From a virus: DNA of 64,000 bases. Each line of letters starts with the position of its first letter. The first letter of the stretch is position 1. This document shows positions 8,725-31,090 of the stretch, in pieces. Below the pieces are notes generated by a model, which had not been told where the DNA came from, searched no databases, and was given only the letters and a program-made list of their open reading frames with translations. The stretch lies in IMG/VR virus record IMGVR_UViG_3300045988_073070; one strand, 5' to 3'. A program made the translations under genes and the position numbers.

Positions 8725-10608
8725 ATGGCAGGTAGCAAAAATTTAGGACAAGTGGCGGGTATCTACGTTGGTACCACGCCACCTGAAAATATCAAAATGA
8801 TATGGTGGGATAGCACTTCCAGCCAACAGTGTCATAAAGTCTATGACTACAATCTAAAACAATGGGTAATACTTAATCAAGGTATTCTTTCAACCATTAC
8901 TTATACGGAGCTGCGAAATATAGCTTTGACGGTTGGGTTATCTCTTGGTAAGTTCTATGTTGTTACGGATAAAGGAAATGTGCTTGCTCTATCCATTACC
9001 AGAACGAAAGTACAATATGTGGATATTTCTGGAAACCTTTTGGTTGACGATTTGGGTTCAAATATCCAATATTATGTATCTTCAAACAATCTTACCATAG
9101 ATGGTGAGACGGGAGTGTTCAACCAAGAAAGCACGAAGCTGAATTTCAATTTCGTTGAAGCCGTTCCGAACGTAGATACAGCGTACATCTACGGTAAAGA
9201 TAGAACTTCATCAAGTTCTTCGGTCATGCGTTTGATTAAGTTCAAGTTGAGTTCCCTTATTTCAACAGTAACGGGAAATGCTTTGACTTGGAACTCTGGA
9301 TTGTATTTCAATTTCAATCAAACTCTTTTGGACTTGGGAGACAAGAAGGGCGGTGTTGTTCTTTTCGACACTTATACAAAGGAACAAGAAGTACAAGACC
9401 AATCTATTGAGAACATAGCGAACAATTACAATGCTCTTGTTTCGCAAGTGAATGCTCTTGTAACGTCAGCGACTTCGGACGTTAATATAATGAACAAAAA
9501 GATAACGGCATTACAGACGGGTGGAGAGCCTATTGATGCCGCAGCAGGTGATACTCTGTACACCGTCTTATCGAAGTTTCAGAGATACATAAACAAGTTC
9601 AAATACGCCACTGGAATCAGCATTAGCAAGAACTTCAAGGAAGCTACCGACCCAGAGTACATAAATAATAATGACACTGTGGAATCGGCATTCTCAAAGG
9701 TTCAATATTGGTTGAAGAATATTTATAGCACTTTGTCGCTATCGAAGGACTTCAAACCAGCAACTGACCCGTCATATGGTACTCCGATTCCTGAATGTGC
9801 TCCGCTTGACCCAATTGAAACTGCTATATCAAAACTTCAAGGAGTTCTGAATGATATTGGGACGATTACGGATGGCAATATAAAATCCAAACAACAAGCT
9901 GTCAATTCAAGTGGTCAAAATCGGGGAAACCGAATGGAGATAAATTTGAATCAAGGCTCTATTGCTATAAAAGCAGACCAATATGGCGGTGGAAGTACGG
10001 CTGCTGATGTTACCATAGACACTTCTGGATTTAGTGCTTACAGTCAAGCAGCTGGGAAATCTGCTCAATTAAATATGAGCGGATTATATACCAACGGTGG
10101 CGGTCAAACAAACGGTTATCCGTACAACGGACACGCTTCAGCTAATATATTTATGACAGGAAATTACGGTTCAGAATATCCTACATTGGGAGATTGGATT
10201 GCTGGATTGTATGCTTGGTCAAATAATAATTCTACATCAGCATATCCTTATGCAGATTACGGAGCTTATATTGAAAAGTTATGTGCAGCAGGACTGATTC
10301 TTGCTTGTCGTAGGTTAAGTGATTCTGATTCTGGATTGACTCTTGGTAATTTTAATTGCTATATTTCTTGTTATAACCAAAATGAGAATATAACAATTAA
10401 TCTTCCACCGAAACCGCAAACAGGACAGTGTTTATGGATTAGACAGGTTAATCCGAACGGTTGTGTAATAAATGGTAATGGAAAAAACATTGTAAGAAAT
10501 GCAAATGAATCGGGCGGTGCATCAAGTGTTACAGTATCGGAAAGAGGTGCTTTGTATTTCCTTTGTTTTGATGGGCAATTTTGGATGATGAATAAGCAAA
10601 ATAATTAA
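8725..10608 (+). CDS. Fibre-like virion protein (possible neck or head fibre)
   Basis: The N-terminus GQVAGIYVGTTPPENIKMIWWDSTS...HKVYDYNLKQWVIL resembles the conserved N-terminal motif of phage fibre proteins. The C-terminal Gly/Asn-rich region looks beta-rich. Lies directly after the portal gene. Confidence 0.4.
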   Translation: MAGSKNLGQVAGIYVGTTPPENIKMIWWDSTSSQQCHKVYDYNLKQWVILNQGILSTITYTELRNIALTVGLSLGKFYVVTDKGNVLALSITRTKVQYVDISGNLLVDDLGSNIQYYVSSNNLTIDGETGVFNQESTKLNFNFVEAVPNVDTAYIYGKDRTSSSSSVMRLIKFKLSSLISTVTGNALTWNSGLYFNFNQTLLDLGDKKGGVVLFDTYTKEQEVQDQSIENIANNYNALVSQVNALVTSATSDVNIMNKKITALQTGGEPIDAAAGDTLYTVLSKFQRYINKFKYATGISISKNFKEATDPEYINNNDTVESAFSKVQYWLKNIYSTLSLSKDFKPATDPSYGTPIPECAPLDPIETAISKLQGVLNDIGTITDGNIKSKQQAVNSSGQNRGNRMEINLNQGSIAIKADQYGGGSTAADVTIDTSGFSAYSQAAGKSAQLNMSGLYTNGGGQTNGYPYNGHASANIFMTGNYGSEYPTLGDWIAGLYAWSNNNSTSAYPYADYGAYIEKLCAAGLILACRRLSDSDSGLTLGNFNCYISCYNQNENITINLPPKPQTGQCLWIRQVNPNGCVINGNGKNIVRNANESGGASSVTVSERGALYFLCFDGQFWMMNKQNN

Positions 10609-12807: not shown

Positions 12808-12999
12808 ATGAACAACAAGAAGGAAGTTGTAAAGAATAATCATTTCATTCCTTCTCCGTTTCCAGCTGTTACCGCTTATGAGAATGAATTTGTAAAAGTG
12901 TGGAACAATAATACGGCTGAGGCAGTTGCAGAGGTTTTGAAATATATGGCCAAAGCTACTGCCTTCGCTATTAAAGAAACGAAGGAGACAAAGAAATGA
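12808..12999 (+). CDS. Hypothetical small protein
   Basis: ORF of 63 aa. Its stop overlaps the next start (ATGA). Confidence 0.4.
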   Translation: MNNKKEVVKNNHFIPSPFPAVTAYENEFVKVWNNNTAEAVAEVLKYMAKATAFAIKETKETKK

Positions 13000-13928
13000 T
13001 ATTCAATCAGGCACAGATTCAAGATATGCTATCAATACTCAAAAGGTATGAGTTGTTGTTTATAGCAGGACAGTTGGGATTGGATTTTCTCTCTCAATCG
13101 GATAAGGATATTTTGATTGCCGCAGGGGTGGACTTGGATAAGTTCAAAAACCAAAAAGGAATAATTGAACATGCCTTTCTTTTCGGAATCCTTGCTGAAG
13201 CTATCGGAGACAAGAGAGCTCAAAATATGACTTATGCTCAATTCAAGAAGTTTCTTGCTTCGGGAAATTTCATACCATTGACCGAAGAAGAAGAATTTGC
13301 CTTGCAAACTTTGAAGAATCGGGCATACACCGATATTACGAGTTTGGGAAGTAGAATGAGAACGGGGTTGAGCAATAACATTCTACGAAACAATCAACAG
13401 CAATCGGTTTTAGTACAACGGATGATTAAGCAAAAGGCAATTAAAGCAGCCGAGCTACGAGTTGGAGCGAGAGGACTTGCGGCAGACCTTGCTGAAACGT
13501 CAAAGGATTGGGAAGTTGATTGGTTGAGAATTGCGTACTATCTTACTCACGAAGCGTTCAATTCAGGACGTGCTCAAAGTATATTAAAGAATTACGGAGC
13601 TGATGCTGAGGTTTACTTCGATGTGTACGAGGGTGCTTGTAAGCATTGTCGTGAACTTCTTTTAACCGACCCAGAGGACGTAAACAGTGAGCCGATTGTG
13701 TTTAAGCTCAAGGACATTATAGCAAACGGCAATAATATTGGTAGAAAGGTTGCTGAATGGAAAGCTACCATATCACCTATACACCCATATTGTCGTTGTA
13801 CTATTAATCACAAAAAGAAGGGTTTTGCTTGGAATCCTGACCTGCGTGCTTTCACAACTCCGATAAAGAAAGTATCTAAAAATCCAAAGTTAAAGAATGT
13901 AAAGTTAAACATAAAAGTTTCAAAGTAG
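12996..13928 (+). CDS. Head morphogenesis protein (Mu F / SPP1 gp7-like)
   Basis: C-terminal ISPIHPYCRCT matches the P-x-H-P-x-C-R-C signature of the Phage_Mu_F family. Located in the head module. Confidence 0.6.
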   Translation: MIFNQAQIQDMLSILKRYELLFIAGQLGLDFLSQSDKDILIAAGVDLDKFKNQKGIIEHAFLFGILAEAIGDKRAQNMTYAQFKKFLASGNFIPLTEEEEFALQTLKNRAYTDITSLGSRMRTGLSNNILRNNQQQSVLVQRMIKQKAIKAAELRVGARGLAADLAETSKDWEVDWLRIAYYLTHEAFNSGRAQSILKNYGADAEVYFDVYEGACKHCRELLLTDPEDVNSEPIVFKLKDIIANGNNIGRKVAEWKATISPIHPYCRCTINHKKKGFAWNPDLRAFTTPIKKVSKNPKLKNVKLNIKVSK

Positions 13929-13932
13929 TATT

Positions 13933-14889
13933 ATGGCTAAAAAGAAAATTGTACAACAGCCACCGTTCACGGTTTTAATAGAGCCGACCGAAGGCTGTAA
14001 TTTGGGGTGTTCATTTTGTGGGTTAAGAGGTATGCGTGAAAAAGGAACGAAGCCTTGGAATCATATGAGCACTAAAACTGCAAAGCGTATTGCGACCGAA
14101 ATAGCGAAAGCTGGTTGGAATAGCAAAATTGTATTCGCTCAACATGGAGAGCCAACGTTGAATCCGAAAATCTTTGAGATTGTGAAGATATTCCGAGAAG
14201 CGTTGCCAAATAGTATTTTCCATATGTACACAAATGGTTATGCGGCAAACCGAGCCGAAGACACCGAAGCGTATGTGAGCGAGTTGTTTGCGTCTGGAAT
14301 TAACAATCTTATCGTGGATTGCTATACAGACGAAGGAGATTGGAACTTCATCAATAAGTTAGAGAAGGAAAGTTGGAATATTGAATTTTACACAAAGGGA
14401 GTTCCGTTGTACACTAACAATCGCAAACCAAGAATCCTTTTACTTCCACCGATTAAGACCGACCATAAAATAACAAGAAAACTTGCTAACCATTGCGGAG
14501 CTGCCGCACCTTTGGATAAGTCTTATAACAATAAGCGTTGCGCCATGCCGTTCCGTGAGTTAGCTTTCCGATACGATGGCAACGTTTCTTTATGTTGCGA
14601 TGACTTTCGTGGGGAATATCCGATTGCTAATATCAATGATATGGGAATCGTTGAACTTTGGAATCACGAACGTTTTCAAGCAGCAAGGATTATGTTGTAT
14701 AATTACAGCCGTCATTTCAGACCATGCAGCGGTTGTACTAACATTAGTATGCGTGTAGGATTCTTGCCTGATAGTTCGGGTCAAGAGAGCCTTCCAGAAA
14801 TTACTCCAGAAATCAAGAAGTTAGCACAAAGTGTGCACAAAGATGGCTTCTTGTCTCCTATAATCATAAAAAGGAAATGGGAAAAATAA
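13933..14889 (+). CDS. Radical SAM enzyme with a SPASM/twitch-like C-terminal Cys cluster
   Basis: CX3CX2C motif in EPTEGCNLGCSFCG. GGEP-type SAM motif QHGEPTLNP. C-terminal cysteines in CAMPFRELAFRYDGNVSLCCDDF and RPCSGCTN. Confidence 0.85.
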   Translation: MAKKKIVQQPPFTVLIEPTEGCNLGCSFCGLRGMREKGTKPWNHMSTKTAKRIATEIAKAGWNSKIVFAQHGEPTLNPKIFEIVKIFREALPNSIFHMYTNGYAANRAEDTEAYVSELFASGINNLIVDCYTDEGDWNFINKLEKESWNIEFYTKGVPLYTNNRKPRILLLPPIKTDHKITRKLANHCGAAAPLDKSYNNKRCAMPFRELAFRYDGNVSLCCDDFRGEYPIANINDMGIVELWNHERFQAARIMLYNYSRHFRPCSGCTNISMRVGFLPDSSGQESLPEITPEIKKLAQSVHKDGFLSPIIIKRKWEK

Positions 14890-15563
14890 AACAAAAATAT
14901 CTCATAATAGCTCCGCATTCCGATGATGCTCTTTTTTGTTGTTCTCACGTTTTGTTCTTCCCTGAATATGAAGTTCAGGTTTTGACCGTAGAGAATGACG
15001 AGAAACGAGTTTCAGAAGATGCGAAGTTATTCGAGTTCTTAAACATTCCCTTTCATCATTTGGAGCTTGATTTTAAGGATGAAAGTTATTACGGATATAA
15101 TAAGGCATACCCGAAGGGAATAACATTGGAGCATGCTTACAAATATCTGAATGAATACTTCGGGCGTGAGACTTTGAGCGAGATAGAAGACACATTGATT
15201 GAATGGGCAAGAAAGTTTTTGAAGAAAAATAAAGGGTATAAGATTCTTGCCCCTTGGGGAGTTGGACACCCTTTTCACTTCTTTGTTCGAGAAACATTAC
15301 AATCGGGATTCTCCGATATGGACTATTATCGGGAATTTCCTCACTCATACAAGAGACGTTCTCAAGCGCAAGTTGAAGAACAAAAGAAAGATTGGTATTT
15401 AGAACGTTCAGTACCAGTGGAAGAGTTTGCTGATATTAAGTGGAAATTAGCATACAAGTTCTATCGTTCTCAATCGGGTTTACTCTTTTACGAACAGGGT
15501 TATATAAAGAAAAACCTGCCTGAAGAAATATGGCGAAGATATGATTCAGACTTACCATTTTAA
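14877..15563 (+). CDS. PIG-L / LmbE family deacetylase
   Basis: N-terminal YLIIAPHSDDALF matches the (A/P)HPDD(E) motif, and a second His motif GVGHPFH is present. The start overlaps the radical SAM gene by 13 nt. Confidence 0.7.
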   Translation: MGKIKQKYLIIAPHSDDALFCCSHVLFFPEYEVQVLTVENDEKRVSEDAKLFEFLNIPFHHLELDFKDESYYGYNKAYPKGITLEHAYKYLNEYFGRETLSEIEDTLIEWARKFLKKNKGYKILAPWGVGHPFHFFVRETLQSGFSDMDYYREFPHSYKRRSQAQVEEQKKDWYLERSVPVEEFADIKWKLAYKFYRSQSGLLFYEQGYIKKNLPEEIWRRYDSDLPF

Positions 15564-15568
15564 GGATT

Positions 15569-17008
15569 ATGAGAATACTTATAGCAGATTTTGAGATTGC
15601 TAAATACGGTGGAATCGTAGAGCATGTAACAGCGAAGGTCAAGGCATTAAAAGCTCTTGGCCACGTTGTCGATATAGCTCAATTGTCCGCTGCCGCAACA
15701 ACTCAAAAAACTTATGATAACAAAGTGAAGAAATTTGAGGATGGTACTTTCAGTGAAGGCTTGAAGGTTAATTCTCAAAATGGCGGTTATGAATACGATG
15801 AAGCAACTGGATATTGGAAGAACAATTATTATGGATTCTTTCTTCCACCCAGTAACCGTATCGGAGTATTTGAAAAGAACGCTTTGGAACGATGGCATAA
15901 TCTTGTTGAGAAGTTCGATTTGATTATGTGGAACTTTATGCCTACGAAGTCAAGTGCTTGGGGAAAGGGTGATTTTTCTTTTTGGTGGAAGTTCTATGAC
16001 CTTCCTACCGATAAGATAAAGCAAATATTCATTGCTCACGATGCGTACTTTGATGTACGTGCTTCAAACGTTACTGCCCTACGGGAGAAGATATTGTTTA
16101 TAGAGTGTGCTCATATTGCTGCATATCGTTGTTGCGAGCATCTGGGAATACCAAGAACGTTATTGTTGAATCCGAGATACCTTGAAGAAGGAGCGAGAAT
16201 GCCAATCAAGATGATGCAGAAGCGTGAAATTGACTTCTTTGCCGCTCATATATTCAAGTCTATGAAGCACGTTGACGACCTTATCAGAGCCGTACCGCAT
16301 TTCAATCAAAAATCGGAATACTCCGTACAGATAGCAGGTTCAGGAATAGAACAAGCCTATATGGTAGCTCCTACGAAATGTAAAGAGCCATACAAGATAA
16401 GTAGAAAGCGTGACCCAGATATTGATTCAGAATATCTTGGACAAAAGATTTGGGATGTAGCGGAACAATATGGCATGGAATATCTTGGTCAGATAAGCTC
16501 CGAAGAAGTAAACCGAAAGTTGAGGAACGCTAAATTTGCGATTGACCCAAGTTGGGCTGCTCATTATTCTCAATATTGTCGTACTCATATAAACGGCTTT
16601 ATTATCGAAGCTATGTTGAATGGGTGTTATCCTGTTTTGCGTGATTATAGAGGACTGATGAAGGGCGTGGACGAGGATTTATATGACCCGTTGTTTGAAA
16701 ACATCAACGCAATCATTATTCCATGGAACGCTACACCGAAGGAATTTGCGAAGGCTTTGAAGAAAGCCGAGAGAATGAGCCCAGCCAAATATTTGAAAGA
16801 TACCAGAGAGAATTTTGCTTTGGTTCACGAGTTATTCAACGCAAAGAATAACATGAAAGAAGTCATTCGACTTGTTAAGGGTGGAAAGAAACTTGTAAAC
16901 AAAGAGCTTGAAAAAGGTAAGGATTCACCAACGGTTAAGAAAATTACAAAAGAGATAATGGAAGATTTTTACCATATTGATTTACCGATTGAGTGGGAGA
17001 CTGATTAA
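15569..17008 (+). CDS. GT-B fold glycosyltransferase (GT4-like)
   Basis: N-terminal MRILIADFEIAKYGGIVEHV...LKALGHVV, and C-terminal INGFIIEAMLNGCYPVL, which matches the E-x-F-G...EAM-x-x-G-x-PV motif of Glycos_transf_1. Confidence 0.7.
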   Translation: MRILIADFEIAKYGGIVEHVTAKVKALKALGHVVDIAQLSAAATTQKTYDNKVKKFEDGTFSEGLKVNSQNGGYEYDEATGYWKNNYYGFFLPPSNRIGVFEKNALERWHNLVEKFDLIMWNFMPTKSSAWGKGDFSFWWKFYDLPTDKIKQIFIAHDAYFDVRASNVTALREKILFIECAHIAAYRCCEHLGIPRTLLLNPRYLEEGARMPIKMMQKREIDFFAAHIFKSMKHVDDLIRAVPHFNQKSEYSVQIAGSGIEQAYMVAPTKCKEPYKISRKRDPDIDSEYLGQKIWDVAEQYGMEYLGQISSEEVNRKLRNAKFAIDPSWAAHYSQYCRTHINGFIIEAMLNGCYPVLRDYRGLMKGVDEDLYDPLFENINAIIIPWNATPKEFAKALKKAERMSPAKYLKDTRENFALVHELFNAKNNMKEVIRLVKGGKKLVNKELEKGKDSPTVKKITKEIMEDFYHIDLPIEWETD

Positions 17009-17068: not shown

Positions 17069-19072
17069 ATGGACGAAATTAAAAAAGCACGCCAAGTAGG
17101 CGACCAACACCCATCAAAGCCTTGGGTGTGGACGGAGTACAAGCCTGGCAAGTTTGATTGGAGACCTATGAAGGGAAAGAAGGCAACAACGGCTTCTTCT
17201 GACGATGATTCGGGAGATGACGACAATGCTGGAGCAACCAAGAAAACTCCGTCAAAGCCTTCTGCCGCACAAGTAGCAGGAGCGAAGGCGAAAGCTGGCA
17301 AACCCATGAACTCTCAGCAACTGTTAGTTTGGGCTCAAAAGACTTCTGATGATAACCTTCTCAAAGTAGCTAACAGCAAGAACGGAAACGCTCAAATGCG
17401 AAAGATAGCGTATGACGCTTTAGAAGCAAGAGGGTTTGATATGTCGCAAGTTGATACTTCGGGAACGCTTGCCCAACTTATGAAGATGACAGGCAAAGGA
17501 AGTCCGAAAGCTCCGACAACGGGAGATGATGACGATGAGGTTGATGTAGCCGATACAAACGAAGAAGCCGAAGTTGATATTGATGACGATTCCGATGGAG
17601 ATTCAGACGGCATCAAAATTACGGAAAAGTGGTATCTTGACAAAAATGACGACCGTGTCAAAAAGATGTTCAATCTGAAAACAAAAGAAGGACGTATCAA
17701 ATACGACCAGTTTGTTTATCGGATGAAGAAAAAAGAGAAGGATTACAAAGACCCAGTTGAAGTAGTTCAGGACTTGAACGAACAATATTTGGAGTTCCTT
17801 GATAACGATGAACAACGGTTCATGATTTCAGCAGGTGGAGCTGGTATTGGTAAATCATACGGCTTCAATAAAATGGCTGAACTCCTTAATATGAAACCGT
17901 TCGAGGAAGGAGACTCACCAGGGGATGGAGATTACGACATATTTGAAGCTCCTGACGTTAATTCAGGCAAACAGCTTTTGAATATTCTCAAAGCCCATAA
18001 CGGTAAAATCATTGTATTTGATGATAACGATAAAGTGTTGAAGAGAGCCGACTGCGCAAGTGTTATGAAGAAGGCTACTGCTACAACAGGCAGACGTATC
18101 GTTGGCGACCCAGATGATATCAAACAGAACTTTGAATTCACTGGACGTATCATTATCATGACCAACAAAGACCTTTCGCAGTTATCCGAGAACGAAGACA
18201 CGAAAGCGATTATCAGCCGTGCAATGATGGTATCGGAAATCTACATGACCGTACCAGAAACAATCCAAGTAATGGAGAGCCGTTATCAGGATTATGAATT
18301 CAAACAAGCTCCAAGACTTGACGATGAAGGAGAAGATAAGAAGGAGCGTGATGAAATTTTGAGTCTTATCAAAAAGAATCAGAAGAACATTGACCCTGCT
18401 CAATTCACAACCCGTACTTTCCAAGAGATTTTGGTGAACAAAAGAAAAGTGGACAACGCAAATGAAAAGCGTTCCAATCCAGCGTTTGCTGCTCTTATCG
18501 GTACAAAGAATAAGGATTGGAAAGAAGTGGCATTGGGAGTTCTCACGAAAGCTGCTGTGAATGATATTGAAGGAAGCTCCGAAGATACTTTTGAGAAAGG
18601 AGAGGACGATGAGTTGGAGAAGGCTGAGGATATTATTTTGGGAGATGAATTCAAAAAAGGGTATTCTGCTGATGACGGAGTTGATTACACCGTAGATGAT
18701 GAAGAGGAAGAAGACATGGATGAAGTCACAAAGGCTGAACTGCTCCTTCTTGGCGATGATTACGGAGTTTTTGAAAAAGCTGAATTTTCCGAGAAACAAC
18801 GCAAAAGTTTGGCTAAGAAAAAAGAAGCCATGCCCGATGGTTCATTCCCAATTCGTAATACTTCGGATTTGAAGAACGCAATTCAGGCGGTTGGAAGAGC
18901 GAAAGACCCAGCAAAAGCGAAAGCATGGATTAAGAAACGTGCGAAAGCTCTTGGAAAGGAAGATTTGCTGCCCGACACTTGGAAAGCGAACACAAATGAC
19001 TTCTTTGGTGAAGATATGGACTTGCAAAAAGCTCAAAGCATTCTTGGAATTGGAAGCGGAATAATGGGATAA
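17069..19072 (+). CDS. Acidic protein with an AAA-like P-loop NTPase core
   Basis: Walker A ISAGGAGIGKSYG, Walker B KIIVFDDND, sensor-1-like RIIIMTNKD. Long D/E tracts. C-terminal motif MPDGSFPIRNTSDLKNAIQAVGRAKDPAKAKAWIKKRAKALG. Confidence 0.55.
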   Translation: MDEIKKARQVGDQHPSKPWVWTEYKPGKFDWRPMKGKKATTASSDDDSGDDDNAGATKKTPSKPSAAQVAGAKAKAGKPMNSQQLLVWAQKTSDDNLLKVANSKNGNAQMRKIAYDALEARGFDMSQVDTSGTLAQLMKMTGKGSPKAPTTGDDDDEVDVADTNEEAEVDIDDDSDGDSDGIKITEKWYLDKNDDRVKKMFNLKTKEGRIKYDQFVYRMKKKEKDYKDPVEVVQDLNEQYLEFLDNDEQRFMISAGGAGIGKSYGFNKMAELLNMKPFEEGDSPGDGDYDIFEAPDVNSGKQLLNILKAHNGKIIVFDDNDKVLKRADCASVMKKATATTGRRIVGDPDDIKQNFEFTGRIIIMTNKDLSQLSENEDTKAIISRAMMVSEIYMTVPETIQVMESRYQDYEFKQAPRLDDEGEDKKERDEILSLIKKNQKNIDPAQFTTRTFQEILVNKRKVDNANEKRSNPAFAALIGTKNKDWKEVALGVLTKAAVNDIEGSSEDTFEKGEDDELEKAEDIILGDEFKKGYSADDGVDYTVDDEEEEDMDEVTKAELLLLGDDYGVFEKAEFSEKQRKSLAKKKEAMPDGSFPIRNTSDLKNAIQAVGRAKDPAKAKAWIKKRAKALGKEDLLPDTWKANTNDFFGEDMDLQKAQSILGIGSGIMG

Positions 19073-19075
19073 AAT

Positions 19076-21442
19076 ATGGAAGATATAAGAAAGGCATTGG
19101 AAACAATAGCTCTTCAAAATGCGAAGGGCAAAGTGTCTGATGACCTTCTTATAAAGGCTTGCGATGCTTACAAGATTAAGTCCGAGACGTTTGACGATTC
19201 TTATGACTATCATGTATGCGTCGCAAAGTCTTTATATGACCACATAAATGGTATAGAGCCGAACGATGAAATCAATAAGGCTATCGTGCCAGGTCAAACG
19301 AAGGTTGTTGATGGAGTGGTGTATATTTACACTGCCACTCCGAACGCAAAGACACAATATGATTGGCGTGTTCTAAAACCAAAGACCGCATCAAAAGTGG
19401 GGCGTCAGGTAGATGCGGCAAAAGCCGATTCAAAACAGAAGTACGTCAATGAATTATTCCCCAATGATTTAAGCACGTTAAAGGTGATTAAAAAGTTAGG
19501 TGGAAGTACGGGAGCGCAACTTGTTGAAGATAGCAGAGGCAATCAGTACGTGATGAAGAAGGGCAGTAATACGTCCAACGAGCACGTCAAGTCCGAGTAT
19601 ATGACCAACCAGTTGTACGACCTTCTTGGTTTACGAGTTCCCGACTTTGAATTGTACGAGGAAAACGGAGAAGCAATATTGTTGTCAAAATTCATACCGA
19701 TGACCCGTATGCCGTCTGCAAAAGATTATGATGAGATGGCGAAGGGTTTTGCGGTTGATGCGTTGTTAGCTAACTGGGATATTTATCAAAACGACAATTG
19801 CTTAATTGATTCGGCTGGTAGAGTTATCCGAGTGGATAATGGCGGTGCTATGGAGTATCGTGCTCAAGGTTCAAAGAAAACTTTTGGTAAGAGTGTTACA
19901 GACTTCAACTCAATGTTGAACTACAATCCGAGTGTTCTTGGAAATCTATCGTTACAAGATAAAGTGAATCAGTTGGATGAGCTTTTGAAGAAACGTGATG
20001 ATGTAATAGGATTCTTGGTTGAAAGTAATTCTAATTTAGTAGGAGTATTTGATGGGCGTTTCAAAGACCTTGAAAATATCAAGAATCAACTTGAAGCGAA
20101 AATAAACAAGAATCAACGCAAGATTACTCCGAGAAAGCTCAAGAGTGATGCGGACATGTACAGAGAGTTATCCGAAGATGAATTGGATGCTATCTGGAAA
20201 GCTCAACAAGGTAGTGATTATTATAGCAAACTCAATGCTACGAATTACACCGTTGGTTGGGAGCTTTTGAGTGCTATTTGCGAAGAACGAGGATTCACTG
20301 CCCGTCCAGAGGTTGTAGATGAAACGGAGTATTGGAATAGAGTAAAGGGTTCAAAGTATCAAATATTTCGTGGGCTATCGTCTGGAAGCGGACATGATGC
20401 GGAATATTATGCTGATGACTTCCGATATAATGACAACTGTTTCTATGGAACTATTGGTATTCACGGTTCAGGACTTTATTTCCACGTGAACGATGGTACT
20501 GGTAATAAGGACAACACAAAGACTACTTTCAAAAATTCCGATGCTTATAAGAACGCAAGGAGTTATGCAGGTAGTTCGGGAGAAATACTTGAGTGCGCTC
20601 TTGACCCCAAAGCAACTGTTGCATTAGTTCCCGACTTGAAGAAAGAGATTCTTTCAATGGTAACATTCGACAAAGCAGCAGTTGATGCGAAGCAGCTTGA
20701 GATTGATTCTCTTAACAAGACCTTATCGCAGCAGCAGGATGACCTTAACAATATAACGGATAAGACCGAGAAGGACATCAAAACAAAGATGCACTGGGAT
20801 AACGATGTTCTTGTTATGCACCAATTGGAAATCGACAATACTGACTGGGGAGCTACGGACGCAGACGGCAATCCAGATTATCCGAGCTTTGAGGATTTTG
20901 TTGAAAAGAAGATGTTTGATTGGGTTAAGAAGAATGGCGGTACTGTTACAGAGAAGGGGAAAGGAAGCGATGTGTATATTTTGAAACTTCCCAATTCCAA
21001 AGAGCCTTTCATGATGAGCCGTTTCCAATACGAGAACAACGCAATCAAAAGAAAGAATGCGTTTTCAAAGCCGTACAACTATCCAGTGAAACGATTTTCC
21101 GATTGGTTGATGAAAGAGCATTACAACGTTATTAACAAAAAGGTTGAGAAGGCTATCGACCAAATTGGTTCAAAGGTTCAAGAGATACAAGCCGACATAA
21201 AACTCACCAAGACCGAGTTGAATACAAAGATTGGTGAGATGAACGACTTGAAGAAGACAAAAGACCCAAATGGGGATATTCTTTCTGGAATCTACGAATC
21301 AGTCAGAAAAGGAAGCAAAGAAGCTATTGGAACATACGCAGCTCTCAAGGGCATTGACGCCATAGTAGAGCCGCATGGAAACGGTGGGCCAAATTCCTTT
21401 ATGATTGTTCTTAATCGTAGTAAAGTAATTGTTAAAAGATAA
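19076..21442 (+). CDS. Large multidomain protein: atypical kinase-like domain plus ADP-ribosyltransferase-like domain
   Basis: Kinase-like string: GGSTGAQLV...YVMKKG...SEYMTNQLY...DALLANWDIYQNDNCLID...IRVDNGG. ART/PARP-like string: YQIFRGLS...GIHGSGLYFH...SSGEILECAL. Coiled-coil C-terminal third. Confidence 0.35.
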   Translation: MEDIRKALETIALQNAKGKVSDDLLIKACDAYKIKSETFDDSYDYHVCVAKSLYDHINGIEPNDEINKAIVPGQTKVVDGVVYIYTATPNAKTQYDWRVLKPKTASKVGRQVDAAKADSKQKYVNELFPNDLSTLKVIKKLGGSTGAQLVEDSRGNQYVMKKGSNTSNEHVKSEYMTNQLYDLLGLRVPDFELYEENGEAILLSKFIPMTRMPSAKDYDEMAKGFAVDALLANWDIYQNDNCLIDSAGRVIRVDNGGAMEYRAQGSKKTFGKSVTDFNSMLNYNPSVLGNLSLQDKVNQLDELLKKRDDVIGFLVESNSNLVGVFDGRFKDLENIKNQLEAKINKNQRKITPRKLKSDADMYRELSEDELDAIWKAQQGSDYYSKLNATNYTVGWELLSAICEERGFTARPEVVDETEYWNRVKGSKYQIFRGLSSGSGHDAEYYADDFRYNDNCFYGTIGIHGSGLYFHVNDGTGNKDNTKTTFKNSDAYKNARSYAGSSGEILECALDPKATVALVPDLKKEILSMVTFDKAAVDAKQLEIDSLNKTLSQQQDDLNNITDKTEKDIKTKMHWDNDVLVMHQLEIDNTDWGATDADGNPDYPSFEDFVEKKMFDWVKKNGGTVTEKGKGSDVYILKLPNSKEPFMMSRFQYENNAIKRKNAFSKPYNYPVKRFSDWLMKEHYNVINKKVEKAIDQIGSKVQEIQADIKLTKTELNTKIGEMNDLKKTKDPNGDILSGIYESVRKGSKEAIGTYAALKGIDAIVEPHGNGGPNSFMIVLNRSKVIVKR

Positions 21443-21446
21443 AGTT

Positions 21447-21812
21447 ATGAACAGAGAAAGATTGGTTTCAATAGTAGGTGGACGAGCCAACCGAGTTGTT
21501 GGGCTCAAAAAACCGAGTGAGCTGATTCCGTTCAAGGGCAAGTTTCCTCTGTTAGAGCCTTACCAAAATGAAGCATTCCATAAAGCTATCGAAGAAACGG
21601 AATACATTGAAAACCTTCCAGAAGATATTCAAAAAATCGTTGAAAAGGGTAGCAGAATTGTAATCATGGAAGAAGGCTTTCAGAGATACCTGAACGAAAA
21701 CGGACTTCAAAAAAGCGACTTCTTGAAGTTGTCCAATTCCGATAAATCAAATTATCTTGTAAATTGGATGAACCAAGATTGTATTGATTATTCACAATTA
21801 ACCATAAAGTAA
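21447..21812 (+). CDS. Hypothetical protein
   Basis: ORF. Start moved to ATG 21447 (MNRERL), just after the upstream stop at 21442. Confidence 0.5.
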   Translation: MNRERLVSIVGGRANRVVGLKKPSELIPFKGKFPLLEPYQNEAFHKAIEETEYIENLPEDIQKIVEKGSRIVIMEEGFQRYLNENGLQKSDFLKLSNSDKSNYLVNWMNQDCIDYSQLTIK

Positions 21813-22565: not shown

Positions 22566-22602
22566 AGGTCAAGAGATTAAAAACTTTTGACCTTTTTATT
22601 TT
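22566..22602 (+). terminator. Rho-independent terminator
   Basis: AGGTCAA (22566-22572) pairs perfectly with TTGACCT (22587-22593), followed by TTTTATTTT. Confidence 0.7.
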
Positions 22603-22604
22603 AT

Positions 22605-24218
22605 ATGGCTACAAAAAGTAAAAGCAATTTGGACAAATTCACCTTCTGGTGTCCTCTGGATATTCAGAAAGCCGTTATTGACCCAGAAACAGGTCAAGAG
22701 GTAATGAGGTTGGGGGGAATAGCTTCAACGTCAGACGAGGACAGTGATGGTGAATTTCTTGACCCGAAAGGGTTTGACATAAAACCGTTAATCAATAGTG
22801 GTATGGTAAATTGGCATCATCAAGCCAAAGGACAGCCTGCTACTATTATCGGAGAGCCTTCAAAAGCAGAGATACGCCCAGAAGGACTTTATATTGAAAC
22901 TGACTTGTATCCTTCTTCTGCTATCGCACGAGATGTGTGGGATTTGGCTCAAACTCTTGAGAAAGATTCAAAGACAAGGCGGTTGGGGTATTCTATCGAA
23001 GGAAAAGTTGTAAAGCGTAAATCCAATGATAAAAAGTCTCCTGACTATAAGAAGATAGTCAAGGCAATTATTACGGGAGTAGCAATCACTCATCAACCAA
23101 AGAATCCTAAAACTTTCGCAAATATAATCAAAGGCGAGATTGATGAGGATTTTGAAGATGAAGTTGAGGAAGCATTGGACACTGAAAACGGTAAAGCTCT
23201 CAAGAAAGAATCGGTTGATAAGAAGTTAAAAAAACAAACTTTTTCAAAATCCGAAGCAATTGAGAAGCTATTCAAAGACATTCCAGGTATAGATATTGAG
23301 AAAGCAGAAAAAATTTATTTAATGACATCTAAATTTGCTAATATGAAAGGTAAAAAAAGAGTCACCGATGAAGACATCAGCAAAGCATACGAAGCTCTTG
23401 GGCTTGAGATAGAAGCTGCTGACGATATTCAGAAGGGTGATGGTTGCGCTGCTAATGGCGGTGGCACCAAAAAGCAGCCTATCAAGAAGGCTAAAAAAAC
23501 GGCAGACGATGTTGGCGATGACGGAGACGAAACGGACGAAGAAGATGAGGACGATGACGACTTCGAGGAAGCCAAAAAGGCCAAAGGTAAAATGAAAAAA
23601 GCCAAGGATGACGAAGGCGATGAAACTGATGATGACGAGCCAGACGATGAGGAAGATGATGAAGACGGAAAAGTTTTCACCAAAAAATCCAAAGGTAGCA
23701 AAATGAAGAAAGGTGGAGACGGTGCAAACCGCTTTGACCGTATCGAAAAGGCTATGGCTACGAGTTACGCAAATCAGACGCAGCTCATTCGTGCTCTTGG
23801 CGTTATGGTAAAGAACTCTGTTCAGAAAACAGAGGAAGTTCTTGCGAAGAACGATGAACTTTTGGACATTGTAAAGGCGCAGGAAGAAACTATCAGCGTA
23901 ATGTCCGAAAAGTTGGAAGAGTACGGTTCAGAGCCTTCGGGGTTCAAGTCTCACCGCAATGTTCAGGGCGTTGACCGTAGCTTTGCGAAAGCAGAGGATT
24001 CAGACATCACCAAAGGTGGTAAACGTGGACTTGGTAAAAATCAAATTCCTATCGGTAACAAAAAGGTTGTTGCAGACCTTCTTGACCAAGCGACCTTTGC
24101 AAAAGGTTATGACGAGGAATTTAGCAAGGCTTGTACTACCTACGAAGCAAGTGGTGCTCTGCCTGCAAACATCATAGCACGTATCAAGAACGAGCTTGGA
24201 TTTGAAATTGTAAAATAA
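22605..24218 (+). CDS. Prohead protease (HK97/U35-like) fused to a scaffold-like region
   Basis: N-terminus GGIASTSDEDSDGEFLDPKGFD...VNWHHQAKGQPATIIGEP...GYSIEGKV resembles prohead serine proteases. The rest is highly charged D/E/K tracts and coiled coil. Start set to ATG 22605, because the track start (TTG 22587) lies inside the terminator stem. Confidence 0.6.
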   Translation: MATKSKSNLDKFTFWCPLDIQKAVIDPETGQEVMRLGGIASTSDEDSDGEFLDPKGFDIKPLINSGMVNWHHQAKGQPATIIGEPSKAEIRPEGLYIETDLYPSSAIARDVWDLAQTLEKDSKTRRLGYSIEGKVVKRKSNDKKSPDYKKIVKAIITGVAITHQPKNPKTFANIIKGEIDEDFEDEVEEALDTENGKALKKESVDKKLKKQTFSKSEAIEKLFKDIPGIDIEKAEKIYLMTSKFANMKGKKRVTDEDISKAYEALGLEIEAADDIQKGDGCAANGGGTKKQPIKKAKKTADDVGDDGDETDEEDEDDDDFEEAKKAKGKMKKAKDDEGDETDDDEPDDEEDDEDGKVFTKKSKGSKMKKGGDGANRFDRIEKAMATSYANQTQLIRALGVMVKNSVQKTEEVLAKNDELLDIVKAQEETISVMSEKLEEYGSEPSGFKSHRNVQGVDRSFAKAEDSDITKGGKRGLGKNQIPIGNKKVVADLLDQATFAKGYDEEFSKACTTYEASGALPANIIARIKNELGFEIVK

Positions 24219-24238: not shown

Positions 24239-25738
24239 ATGACACCTGAAAGATTAACAATTAACCTGTCTGACTACGGTTATGCCGCTCAGCAGGATGG
24301 GTATCATATCGGTATGGGTAGTTCCGAAAACGTTGACCAGCTCAACAAAGCTCTTGCTGCGGAACAGATAACTGGTATGCAAACCCAGAACATGACGGAT
24401 GCCTCTGGTGCTCCGTTGAAGGTTGAATCTTTGGAGAAAACTCTGAAGCATATCACCTTCCGTGAGAGTGATATTCGCTTGTGGAAAGACCTTCCCAAGA
24501 AACCTGCTTACAATACCGTGGAAGAGTACAATCAGCAAACTTCTTATGGTGCTAACCGTGGCGGTTGGAATCGTGAAGGGGAATTGCCTGAGGAAGAAGA
24601 TTCCATCTTTGTTCGTAGAGCGCAGTTGGTGAAATACTTGGGTGTAACCAAGTCCGTAACTCACCAGATGACGCTTGTGAACACGATGATTGGTTCTGTA
24701 ATGGAACGCACAATCAAAGATGGTACGCTTTGGATTCTCCGTACTTTGAACCAAGGTTTGTACTTCGGTAACGAAAAACTCATTCCTGAACAGTTCAATG
24801 GATTCCTTGCTCAGCAAATGCAGTCTGACGCTTGGGCTTCTTATGCGGCTTACATGGATTCGGAAAACGTTATTGACTTGCGTGGTAACGCATTGACCGA
24901 AGATGCCATTGAAAGCGGTGCCAACTCTATCGTAGAAAACTACGGATTGGGAACACAGATTTATGGCCCACCTGCTGTACTGTCCAACTTTGTGAAGAAC
25001 TTCTACGGTAACAAGTTTATCGTTCCGAATACTCCTTCAATGTCTGACGGTATCATGGGTCAGAGGGTTCAGGCTTTCGATAGCCAGTTTGGACGTATCG
25101 GATTGAACCATGACGTGTTCTTCAAGAAACTTCCTGCTAAAAATTCCGTATCACCCGCCAACTCTCAGAAAGCTCCGAACAAACCTGTTTGGGACACTAC
25201 AACTCCTGCAGCAGTTCAGAGCAATGTTACTGGAACGAAGTGGGCGAGTGAAGATGCCGGCAACGTTATGTACGCTGTATCTGCTATTAACCGTTTCGGT
25301 GAATCCGAGCTTTCAATTTACGCAACAGCGGTTGCTGCCGTTGCTAATTGCGCAATTGACTTGAAGTTTACCGATGGTGGTGGCGTGAATAAAGCAACTG
25401 CTTATCGCATCTATCGTACCAAGGTTGGTGGAAGTGCTACTGGCATGTTCTATCCGTTGTTTGAAGTTTCTTTGGACGATTTGACCCGTGGTTACGATGG
25501 CGGTGGAGCTGGTATTATCCGAGACATGAACCGCTTCTTGCCCGACACTGACCAATCAATGCTTGTACAGTTCGACAACGAGGTTGTTGAGTTTGCTCAG
25601 TTAGCTCCGCTGATGAAGATGGATTTGGCTGTTCTTTCTCCTGCCTTCCGATTCATGGTGCTTCTGTATGGAACTCCGTTCTTGTACGCTCCGAAGAAAA
25701 TGGTGCGCTTAATCAATATCGGAAAGACCATCAAATAA
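24239..25738 (+). CDS. Major capsid protein
   Basis: 499 aa, directly after the protease/scaffold gene and followed by a strong terminator. Called by position and size. Confidence 0.6.
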   Translation: MTPERLTINLSDYGYAAQQDGYHIGMGSSENVDQLNKALAAEQITGMQTQNMTDASGAPLKVESLEKTLKHITFRESDIRLWKDLPKKPAYNTVEEYNQQTSYGANRGGWNREGELPEEEDSIFVRRAQLVKYLGVTKSVTHQMTLVNTMIGSVMERTIKDGTLWILRTLNQGLYFGNEKLIPEQFNGFLAQQMQSDAWASYAAYMDSENVIDLRGNALTEDAIESGANSIVENYGLGTQIYGPPAVLSNFVKNFYGNKFIVPNTPSMSDGIMGQRVQAFDSQFGRIGLNHDVFFKKLPAKNSVSPANSQKAPNKPVWDTTTPAAVQSNVTGTKWASEDAGNVMYAVSAINRFGESELSIYATAVAAVANCAIDLKFTDGGGVNKATAYRIYRTKVGGSATGMFYPLFEVSLDDLTRGYDGGGAGIIRDMNRFLPDTDQSMLVQFDNEVVEFAQLAPLMKMDLAVLSPAFRFMVLLYGTPFLYAPKKMVRLINIGKTIK

Positions 25739-29467: not shown

Positions 29468-31090
29468 ATGGCAACAGTTGTTAATTTTCACGGTAAGGAC
29501 TATGTTGAACCTGGTTCTTATGCAGCAACGGTTTACAACCCAACTTCTGTCGTTAATGTCGCTACGTTCGGGAACGTGATGATTATTGATACGGGGTTGA
29601 GCATCAACGGCTCTTATGAATTTGCTGGCGGTTCAGGCGTACACGGAGAACTCAATCAAGGCTTAAAGTCTGTATATGAGTTCGACAATTACGAGGACTT
29701 CTTGGCATTCATGGGCGGTGGATTCGTTGGAAATCTTGCTGAAAAAATCTTTACTCCGATGGACGGAGTAGCTGGTGCGCCCAAGCTCTATTATACGAGA
29801 GCAGCAACGACCAAATGCGCAAACATAACTCTTACAATGTCATCAGGGAATACTCTGAATCTGAAATGTAAGAACGAAGGTATTGCGGGAAATGGTCAAG
29901 CTGTATCGGGCGTTTTGAAAGTAGGTTATGCATGTAAGATTATCGCAGGTGAAACTGCTGATACATTTATTTTACAAGCATACAAAGGCTCTTTTATGGG
30001 AGTGGACGAAGCAGGGGAAGCCTACGGAGCGAAAGACTTGGAGAATGCTACTCCAAACCTCATTGCTGAATCTCCTGAATGTGCTACGTTACAAGACCTG
30101 TACAATTGGGCAAGTACCAATAAACAGATGCTTGCTAATTTCGTAGTAAGTATGACGGGAGACGGAGCAACCGAAGTAGTGGCAATTGACCAAACTCTTG
30201 CTACGGGTGGTACAACCGAGTTTTTGAGCGGTAATGAATATGCTGACGTTTTGGAAGCTATTACGGAGCTTGATGTAACGTTCTTCCTTTGTACAAACAA
30301 AAATGCTTCTAATGGAAAGGGAGTTGATGCAGCTACAAACGGCAAGTTATTTACGTTCTTGAAACAAACTGCGAAGTACACCGAATTTATGGTTGTGCCT
30401 GGTGGACAAGACGATACCGACTTGTTTGGTGACGCTAATACTTCTCAGTCAATTGCGAAGTATTTCAATTCAGGACAGGTTGTTTGCGTACACGGTGCTC
30501 CGCAGGTTACGAGAAAAGACCAAAACGGAACGAAGGATTTGCCGACCATTTATTTGGCTGCGGCTATCGTAGGACTTAATGCGGGTATGGCTGCTCAAAC
30601 TCCTTTGACATTCAAACGAGTTGGTTACCAAAATTTCGTTTACGACTTGAAACAAAGGGAACGTGTGAGAGCTTTACAGGCAGGTATCATGCACGTTCGG
30701 AACGTAGCAGGATATTGGTGCGTGAACCAAGGGATTACCACTTTGCTGGAGAACAAGAAAACTATTGCAGACGATGGTCAAAGTTTTGAGCTTTCAATCG
30801 AGCTTATCAAGGCTCAGTTGAACAAAGAACTTATCATTGAAGGACAAACGAGATTCACGGGTAACACCGCTGCTCAAGCAAGTCCTCAATCGGTTAAGAA
30901 CTTTACAGAGACCAAACTGCAATCGTTGGTTGCATATCCTGGCAATGATAATTTGCTTATCAGTTGGAAGAACGTAAAAGTTGTTGCTAAAAACAGCGAC
31001 TACTTTATCACGTATGACTTTACTCCGAACGTTCCTGTGAATAAGACGTTCTTTATTGGTAACATTCTTGACTTCTACGTTGAAGCATAA
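29468..31090 (+). CDS. Tail sheath protein
   Basis: 540 aa, followed by a 166-aa tube-sized gene, a terminator, two small chaperone-sized ORFs and the tape measure. This is the canonical gene order of contractile-tailed phages. Confidence 0.6.
   Translation: MATVVNFHGKDYVEPGSYAATVYNPTSVVNVATFGNVMIIDTGLSINGSYEFAGGSGVHGELNQGLKSVYEFDNYEDFLAFMGGGFVGNLAEKIFTPMDGVAGAPKLYYTRAATTKCANITLTMSSGNTLNLKCKNEGIAGNGQAVSGVLKVGYACKIIAGETADTFILQAYKGSFMGVDEAGEAYGAKDLENATPNLIAESPECATLQDLYNWASTNKQMLANFVVSMTGDGATEVVAIDQTLATGGTTEFLSGNEYADVLEAITELDVTFFLCTNKNASNGKGVDAATNGKLFTFLKQTAKYTEFMVVPGGQDDTDLFGDANTSQSIAKYFNSGQVVCVHGAPQVTRKDQNGTKDLPTIYLAAAIVGLNAGMAAQTPLTFKRVGYQNFVYDLKQRERVRALQAGIMHVRNVAGYWCVNQGITTLLENKKTIADDGQSFELSIELIKAQLNKELIIEGQTRFTGNTAAQASPQSVKNFTETKLQSLVAYPGNDNLLISWKNVKVVAKNSDYFITYDFTPNVPVNKTFFIGNILDFYVEA

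Follow-up and report, generated by a model that had tools for sequence, protein, structure and literature searches.

A head-module phage protein pairing a protein-kinase-like fold with a split domain that is probably an ADP-ribosyltransferase fold

Introduction

What does a protein bearing the marks of two different enzymes do among the head genes of a phage? The question is raised by an open reading frame (ORF) at positions 19076..21442 (+ strand) of a 64,000-nucleotide stretch of viral DNA (IMG/VR record IMGVR_UViG_3300045988_073070; hereafter the window), which is a myovirus structural region. The product, 788 amino acids (aa) long with the stop codon included in the coordinates, had been taken in a first, sequence-only reading for a packaged and injected host-takeover or anti-defence effector in which an atypical kinase-like domain is combined with a domain resembling ADP-ribosyltransferases (ARTs).

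On balance, we lean towards a polyvalent effector carried as injected cargo and made up of a family-specific N-terminus, a HipA/PI3-4K-like kinase fold and an ART fold with an R-Y-D signature. The general concept is already known as a computational prediction: ARTs and kinases occur in virion-delivered polyvalent proteins, and ARTs are enriched in the head modules of myoviruses. The advance is one of detail, not of kind. New are a split R-Y-D family with candidate catalytic residues, the correction of a previously proposed catalytic residue, a compact kinase-plus-ART architecture conserved in a populous phage clade, and the finding that a single kinase-like family accompanies one or the other of two ART clades, depending on the phage lineage.

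Results

The gene belongs to an abundant family

Among 5.8 billion proteins searched, 358 are homologues of the target protein at E<=1e-3. The best 120 of these are mostly ~790 aa long, full-length and 44-99% identical to the target; many sit on phage contigs of ~95-115 kb, and several homologue clusters of the clade contain hundreds of metagenomic member sequences. Conservation within the family was counted in an alignment of 70 homologues with 37-89% identity to the target. Because the motif residues described below are conserved across these 70 sequences, and because full-length homologues are abundant, the ORF is genuine and not a chance reading frame. The source phage is a gut-type myovirus, and the host of its clade is probably a member of the Bacteroidota; the major capsid protein encoded in the window shows 46% identity to Bacteroides phages DAC19-23 and has SPO1-like relatives too. 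The gene keeps its head-module position in the homologues. With the whole protein as query, phmmer against PDB sequences returned noise only. All the motifs on which the sequence-only reading had relied (GGSTGA, VMKK, SEY, DALLANWDIYQNDN, VDNGG, FRG, GSGLYF and EILE) do lie at the residues given for them (Table 1).

A kinase fold with an intact catalytic set

For aa 1-352, AlphaFold2 (AF2) produced a model with pLDDT averaging 86.7 (84-97 over aa 120-340, mostly >90). Searched against the PDB with Foldseek, it gave 338 matches at E<=1e-3 with a probability of 1.0, and among the best 50 all 50 have the protein-kinase-like (PKL) fold, which bears out the kinase-like domain predicted from motifs. 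The matches listed include the ThurKC kinase domain (8e-8), RNase L, CK1, Myt1, PKA, PI4KIIIb and NahK; TM scores are 0.24-0.35 when normalised on the 352-aa query, of which the domain takes up ~230 aa, and the top query-length-normalised TM score among these 50 belongs to PI4KIIIb. Invariant in 70/70 family members are G142, S144, T145, G146, K161, E174, D228, N233, D235, N239, D240, N241 and G256, with D254 following at 69/70; the roles assigned to individual residues in Table 1 were inferred from motif order. A homologous domain is found in Pseudomonas phage Dolphis (gp117), Morganella phage Mecenats66 (ORF50) and Gordonia phage GodonK (gp67), and the kinase motif residues are common to these three other lineages. 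A tblastn search also places the domain in genes that related phages, among them Yersinia phage fHe-Yen8-01, carry with an ADP-ribosyltransferase annotation.

Which kinases are closest? We take the catalytic-loop-like segment DALLANWDIYQNDN, or L-L-A-N-W-D-x-Y-x-N-D-N, to resemble 'GNxDDHxKN' of HipA and 'G-N/D-x-D-[DR]-H-x-x-N' of HipA and PI3K. HipA is the only recurrent Pfam signal of the domain at the sequence level: among 32 family members, HipA_C is matched in 14 (best E 0.0042) and HipA_2 in 6, always below threshold and in the N-lobe. The target itself misses both gathering thresholds (HipA_C, PF07804: 13.0 against 30.5 bits; HipA_2, PF20613: 12.6 against 27). A toxin-antitoxin context is absent, the adjacent 667-aa NTPase-like and 120-aa proteins having no helix-turn-helix match. 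We conclude with high confidence that aa ~120-350 form a PKL-fold domain in which the catalytic set is intact, and with moderate confidence that the kinases closest to it are of the HipA/PI3-4K type; the Pfam HipA families do not include it.

The second domain is split by a coiled-coil insert

For the second domain, the sequence-only reading had proposed a span of ~400-520 and a glutamate of EILE as the core acid. The span captures the N-terminal half (aa ~395-526) and misses the C-terminal half (aa 731-788): the two form one domain unit, interrupted by an insert that is placed between strand 4 and the strand bearing the predicted catalytic acid (AF2 model of aa 353-788, pLDDT 95). A hidden Markov model (HMM) of the core with aa 527-730 deleted recovered short-form homologues (P0131-P0133), and a profile built from the short forms matched 1587 proteins at E<=1e-3 among 1.84 billion representatives at 50% identity. 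The superfamily unit so defined spans ~170-190 aa: qGFdGkP.vv … RG … G.G.Y … A..YA … v.rmaL.kdAk – [insert] – GYDAi … viLNRt. Insert length varies in the superfamily between ~0 and 432 aa; the median is 43 outside the target family and ~200-220 inside it. No superfamily member tested reaches any Pfam threshold.

The proposed glutamates do not hold up as core acid. In the family, E503 is kept in 13/70 and E506 in 30/70 sequences, next to 70/70 for each of R432, G433, G466 and Y468. When the target family is left out, E506 is kept in 11 of 121 units, drawn from 111 proteins with other architectures, compared with 121/121 for R432, G466, G759 and D761, 120/121 for Y468 and N780, and 119/121 for R781. 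D761 opens a beta-strand (aa 762-765) in the AF2 model. In PARP and diphtheria-toxin-type ARTs the catalytic Glu lies at the start of the corresponding strand. The Asp of the H-Y-D N4-type ART was placed at the same strand start by Iyer et al. (PMC5512222). Conservation and model alike point to D761 as the predicted catalytic acid, and it lies ~250 residues downstream of EILE because the ~200-aa coiled-coil insert splits the domain. We had also considered 'NSF' before FMIVLNR, by analogy with 'NEY' of PARP, and dropped it: the position is variable, and D761 is at the start of the preceding strand.

The long coiled-coil segments could also be the functional part of a structural or scaffolding head component (internal core or decoration), with the enzyme-like domains as relics. 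A weak PHROG 'tail fiber' match on the coiled coil and the strictly conserved head-module position fit this explanation, to which we nonetheless give hardly any weight: the catalytic-type residues of both domains are invariant down to 37% identity and across the superfamily, which is unexpected of relics.

Evidence for an ART fold

The order of secondary-structure elements in the model of the second domain is compatible with the split beta-sheet of ARTs, and R432 and Y468 are 36 residues apart, comparable to the spacing of 34 between H862 and Y896 of PARP1. Of the H-Y-[EDQ] triad, Tyr (Y468) and Asp (D761) are invariant; the strand-1 His is absent and is replaced by an equally invariant Arg (R432). 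The ART-like assignment drawn from FRG, GSGLYF and EILE survives as a probable fold through the profile comparisons below, and changes as to signature, which is R-Y-D and not H/R-Y/S-E.

For comparison by hhalign, we collected an N4-ART/ART-PolyVal reference of seven sequences by tblastn from the vRNAP of Roseovarius Plymouth podovirus 1 (RPP1), named as the N4-ART prototype by Iyer et al. (PMC5512222). The R-Y-D superfamily aligned to this N4-ART-type profile with a score of 40.6 (P 2.8e-6, probability 88%); the Viterbi alignment begins at the GxGxY strand, runs through the last strand (104 columns) and sets GYDA opposite GYDG. In controls, 150 column-shuffled profiles scored 11.3±2.2 (max 18.7; z≈13) and the reversed alignment 13.8. 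The target-family profile alone gave P 2.7e-5.

Weaker signals recur in the same direction. Among 53 relatives, Pfam returned three PARP and two ART-PolyVal matches, and among 30 trimmed units four ART-PolyVal (E>=0.011), two PARP and two DUF3990, all below threshold; the best relative, P0144, matches ART-PolyVal at 2.3e-5 with 25.6 bits against a gathering score of 31.2. PARP, ART-PolyVal and DUF3990 (presumably an ART clan member) recur among these weak matches, and other enzyme families do not. Of the seven weak matches of the superfamily profile to PDB sequences, five are tankyrase-2 (E 5-8), on the GxGIYFA motif. In the Foldseek search with the C-half model PARP1 is the only recurrent enzyme fold among weak matches (E 2-3.6 over 105 columns), the insert hampering local alignment; matches to MutS and a V-ATPase stalk were dismissed as coiled-coil noise.

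Other searches returned nothing of use. The C-half model found only uncharacterized phage proteins in BFVD; the insert-deleted target-family HMM (A4) found no PDB sequence at E<=10, and a per-member Pfam scan of the A4 set no ART family. The 125-aa RPP1 ART domain had no matches in a homology search, and neither did one compact R-Y-D unit by tblastn against the phage collection. Three alignments were set aside: A4 against a single PARP1 catalytic sequence is a meaningless 19-column match; a broader profile aligned in register with single PARP1 (P 0.0027) and RPP1 ART (P 0.014) sequences, too weakly to count alone; and a global hhalign pairing of N4-ART 'YHGT' with target 'FYGT' was rejected, as the segment is coil in the model and the 'H' position unconserved.

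Features of R-S-E ARTs are absent from the target: it has no PF03496 match, G-x-G-x-Y in place of STS, and no conserved ExE. The domain lies outside strict PF18760, by score and by its lack of the His, and outside the R-S-E clade. From these comparisons, we think it likely that it has an ART fold and is a sister to N4-ART/ART-PolyVal, with an R-Y-D signature and an additional invariant N-R.

Occurrence of the R-Y-D domain and predicted delivery of its carriers

The R-Y-D domain is found one to several times per large polyvalent phage protein, alongside Phage_Mu_F, Phage_portal, NUDIX, ADPrib_exo_Tox, Zeta_toxin and GNAT domains. In GodonK, the gene for gp67 (1479 aa) directly follows the portal gene, and its product carries the kinase-like domain at aa 94-248 and a long-insert R-Y-D domain at aa 1096-1208 and ~1418-1473. 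ORF030 of cyanophage P-SS2 (1500 aa) has an R-Y-D domain at aa 1182-1376, and this protein was found in purified virions by mass spectrometry, with 96.5 peptides on average (PMC2784084). ARTs of myovirus head modules have been predicted to be packaged and injected (PMC5512222, PMC9503650). The target has the features of a polyvalent effector, joining a kinase-fold and an ART-like domain in a gene between portal and prohead protease, and by analogy we infer that it is packaged and injected.

The late, head-proximal location would fit equally well an enzyme that acts unpackaged in the producing cell, for instance by phosphorylating or ADP-ribosylating assembly factors, structural proteins of the phage or proteins of host defence during morphogenesis. 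Non-structural enzymes are indeed its neighbours (radical SAM, glycosyltransferase-like, P-loop NTPase and GH108 proteins), and neither a capsid-targeting sequence nor a MuF domain was found in the target. We consider such an enzyme unlikely: fusions of the R-Y-D domain to MuF, portal and known injected-toxin domains recur, a carrier of it is the P-SS2 virion protein, and the two-domain gene of GodonK comes directly after the portal gene.

A stand-alone protein of ~150 aa resembling N4-ART/ART-PolyVal (YHGS … GPGFYLT … QGYDSVII) occurs in Dickeya phage XF4 (L015 391-849) and related Ackermannviridae; its annotation as an 'unknown structural protein' suggests that members of this ART family belong to the virion in Limestone-like phages.

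The short form P0133 (356 aa; L003 10001-11071) is encoded between a QueE-like radical SAM gene and QueC on a 70.6-kb phage contig that also has PTPS/QueD and GTP cyclohydrolase I genes nearby, so that the domain stands beside genes of 7-deazaguanine DNA modification.

The chemistry may differ from protein ADP-ribosylation: the ART fold could serve an NADase, a DarT-like nucleic-acid modifier or a non-catalytic binder of NAD+ or ADP-ribose, and the kinase fold could act on a small molecule or in AMPylation-type chemistry. The Arg in place of His and the extra N-R, which is not a described ART feature, are compatible with this, as are NahK and APH-type small-molecule kinases among the Foldseek matches, the frequent co-occurrence with NUDIX (suggesting nucleotide or ADP-ribose metabolism) and the short-form homologue inside the 7-deazaguanine cluster. 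We nevertheless find it quite improbable: invariant R, Y and D argue for catalysis over mere binding, and the nearest profile is that of N4-ART, a predicted macromolecule modifier (PMC5512222).

One kinase-like family, two ART clades

In GodonK and in the Bacteroidota-type myovirus clade of the target, the partner of the kinase-like domain is R-Y-D; in Dolphis, Mecenats66 and fHe-Yen8-01, a domain of the same kinase-like family stands with an R-S-E/Alt-type ART. Dolphis gp117 (L001 4060-7728) and Mecenats66 ORF50 (L002 4030-7746), of ~1220-1238 aa, combine long Ala/Pro-rich repeats with the kinase-like domain and a C-terminal ADPrib_exo_Tox (PF03496, R-S-E ART). A NUDIX or 'nucleotide phosphatase' gene lies two genes downstream of each, and the kinase-like/ART block of Mecenats66 is just upstream of the terminase gene.

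Pairing with two unrelated ART clades, together with NUDIX genes often nearby, suggests that the kinase could act on the ADP-ribose adduct or the same target site. Taken to its end, this would make the two domains an obligate two-step system in which, for instance, a phosphorylated ADP-ribosyl mark could become irreversible to host hydrolases and no host protein would be phosphorylated independently; we hold such a coupling to be very improbable.

Gene neighbourhood

The position of the gene in the head block, as first described, is confirmed: portal, prohead protease and major capsid protein genes surround it (Table 1), the target lying within a ~14 kb cargo stretch bounded by the first two. 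In relatives at only 45% identity the genes still follow one another as 663 aa, target, 120 aa, GH108, PG_binding_3, ~510 aa, capsid protein.

Table 1. Features of the target protein and of its surroundings, in window coordinates
Feature	Coordinates	Strand	Remarks
Portal	6947-8719		head block
Radical SAM + SPASM protein	13933-14889		Pfam 3e-13 and 1e-11
Weak GT1-like glycosyltransferase	15569-17008
Upstream 667-aa gene	17069..19072	+	conserved partner of target; P-loop NTPase-like with acidic linkers
N-terminal family-specific domain, aa 1-119	19076..19432	+	three helices, then small beta unit with YDWRV at its end (AF2 secondary structure)
Protein-kinase-like (HipA/PI3-4K-like) domain, aa ~120-350	19433..20125	+	AF2 + Foldseek
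Gly-rich loop GGSTGA, aa 142-147	19499..19516	+	69-70/70 conserved
K161 (VMKK, aa 159-162)	19556..19558	+	predicted ATP-anchoring Lys; 70/70
E174 (SEY, aa 173-175)	19595-19597	+	predicted alpha-C Glu; 70/70
Catalytic-loop-like DALLANWDIYQNDN, aa 228-241	19757..19798	+	D235, predicted catalytic Asp
VDNGG, aa 253-257	19832..19846	+	D254, predicted metal-binding (DFG-like) Asp
Helical linker / N-terminal extension of second domain, aa 353-394	20132..20258	+	AF2 C-half model, pLDDT 90-95
R-Y-D domain, N-terminal half, aa ~395-526	20259..20653	+	RGF..P..VV, strand to R432-G433, helix, G464-x-G466-x-Y468 strand, helix, two strands
R432 (FRG, aa 431-433)	20369..20371	+	at strand-1 His/Arg position of ARTs
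Y468 (GSGLYF, aa 464-469)	20477-20479	+	at strand-2 Tyr position
EILE, aa 503-506	20582..20593	+	glutamates variable
~200-aa insert, aa 527-730	20654..21265	+	coiled-coil hairpins + small alpha/beta subdomain (AF2)
R-Y-D domain, C-terminal half, aa 731-788	21266..21439	+	two helices, G759-I-D761-A at strand start, then FMIVLN780R781 and VIVK strands
Downstream ~120-aa ORF	21447..	+	conserved
GH108 lysozyme, 136 aa	21814-22224	+
PG_binding_3 protein, 104 aa	22221-22535	+
Prohead protease/scaffold-like gene	22587-24218	+	PHROG 1028 at 4e-36
Major capsid protein	24239-25738	+	PHROG 752 at 5e-83
Sheath	29468-31090

The target starts 3 nt past the stop of the upstream 667-aa ORF, which the sequence-only reading had called MuF-like. 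We reject that identity: the ORF has no Pfam match at E<=0.1, its sole match is PHROG 1250, a family of unknown function, and its sequence shows the Walker-A signature GAGIGKS, linkers that are long, acidic and of low complexity, and the motif MPDGSFPIRNTSDLKNAIQAVGRA towards the C-terminus. Phage_Mu_F (PF04233) itself gave no match at E<=0.1 in the target, in this ORF or in the ORF at 8725-10608. The two partners may have something else in common. An HMM of the N-terminal domain of the target (aa 1-119) matches only proteins of the same architecture, and the domain bears a weak resemblance to the N-terminus of the upstream ORF: there KPWVWTEYKPGKFDWRPMKGKK is weakly like aa 80-103 of the target (phmmer E~0.02 in a 285-sequence database). 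The N-terminal domain may be a head-incorporation signal, and the sequence similarity hints that target and upstream protein may share a head-incorporation element.

Downstream, a mechanical ORF call (21429-21812) uses a TTG start that overlaps the end of the target. An ATG 5 nt past the target stop, giving a ~120-aa product like the 120-128-aa gene of relatives, is probably the true start (Table 1). A likeness of the 127-aa downstream ORF to P0133 was judged spurious (<9 bits per segment). The next two ORFs, GH108 and PG_binding_3, overlap by 4 nt and are also present as two genes in 45%-identity relatives (L008, L010); the pair could be virion-associated wall-degrading cargo and not a classical endolysin.

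Further upstream, the radical SAM/SPASM gene has as its neighbours the GT1-like gene and two genes whose products are of unknown function. This block (12996-17008) between portal and head protease could serve to modify peptides or sugars, an unusual cassette to find inside a structural module.

Discussion

How might the target work as an injected polyvalent effector? Extrapolating from the folds and homology, residue conservation and synteny observed here to enzymatic activity, substrates, packaging and ejection, we propose that the protein would be made late alongside the head proteins and taken into the prohead, perhaps via its family-specific N-terminal domain, and be ejected with the DNA into the host, probably a member of the Bacteroidota. 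There the kinase domain would phosphorylate a host target and the R-Y-D domain would ADP-ribosylate a host macromolecule using NAD+, with R432 and Y468 holding NAD+ and D761 acting as the catalytic acid. The insert is at the site of the ART target-recognition loop, and we therefore propose that the coiled coils could serve as a specificity or oligomerisation module.

Several points weigh against this proposal. A MuF domain or capsid-targeting signal was not identified in the target protein. Its sole kinase match at the sequence level is HipA_C at E 0.08, and it has no Pfam ART match even at E<=10. HMMER profiles found no ART below E 5 among PDB sequences. Foldseek returned nothing from the PDB at E<0.25 for the C-half model, the PARP1 matches being non-significant. 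The reference sequences used for N4-ART are assigned to that family by their tblastn similarity to the RPP1 prototype. Finally, strand 1 carries Arg and not the His of the H-Y-[EDQ] clade, and NAD+ chemistry is thus extrapolated.

If the proposal is true, phages of a widespread clade (~95-115 kb) have in their heads a conserved weapon made of two enzymes, a kinase together with an ADP-ribosyltransferase, and early host takeover or anti-defence gains a defined candidate in phages whose hosts are probably Bacteroidota. To our knowledge, such mechanisms are essentially unstudied in these phages. The candidate functional residues of the R-Y-D domain are R432, Y468, D761, N780 and R781, and a functional coupling, which can be tested, is hinted at by the recurrence of one kinase-like family beside two different ART clades.

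Among known systems, the closest in concept are the polyvalent proteins (Iyer, Burroughs, Anand, de Souza, Aravind 2017, PMC5512222; Iyer et al. 2022, PMC9503650), which are likewise multi-enzyme polypeptides encoded with portal and head genes. Within this class no modifying domain is commoner than ART, and the proteins are predicted to be injected with the DNA; the published work on polyvalent proteins and head ARTs is, like ours, computational (PMC5512222, PMC9503650). The target differs in that its enzymatic domains number only two and that MuF, portal and MPTase modules are all lacking.

The polyvalent class also includes a truncated Ser/Thr/Tyr-type kinase family in Bacteroidetes phages (PMC5512222, PMC9503650), whose His-to-Asp insert and conserved Gln are not evident in the target. 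HipA_C/HipA_2 kinases and PI3/PI4-kinase-like enzymes are the best sequence-level matches of the kinase domain, all sub-threshold; unlike HipA kinases, the target is without a HipB-type antitoxin, and its C-lobe past the DFG-like Asp is short. Phage T7 gp0.7 is a kinase that phosphorylates host proteins early in infection, being expressed early and not packaged. It is a functional analogue of the target kinase, with no sequence relationship detected in the searches made.

For the second domain, T4 Alt and the Alt/VIP2-type R-S-E ARTs (ADPrib_exo_Tox) provide the functional precedent of a head-packaged, injected ART; the target, without STS, ExE or an ADPrib_exo_Tox match, belongs to a different ART clade. 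Closer are N4-ART and ART-PolyVal (PF18760; Tox-ART-HYD2 clade), which, like R-Y-D, are single or repeated in polyvalent proteins and share with it the order of strand-1 [H/R]-G, G-x-[YF]-[FY] in strand 2, the A..YA helix and G-Y-D-[GA] where the strand with the predicted catalytic acid begins. From N4-ART the R-Y-D domain is set apart by Arg in place of His, an extra invariant L-N-R strand, a conserved N-terminal QGF.G.P.VV and a variable insert of up to 430 aa.

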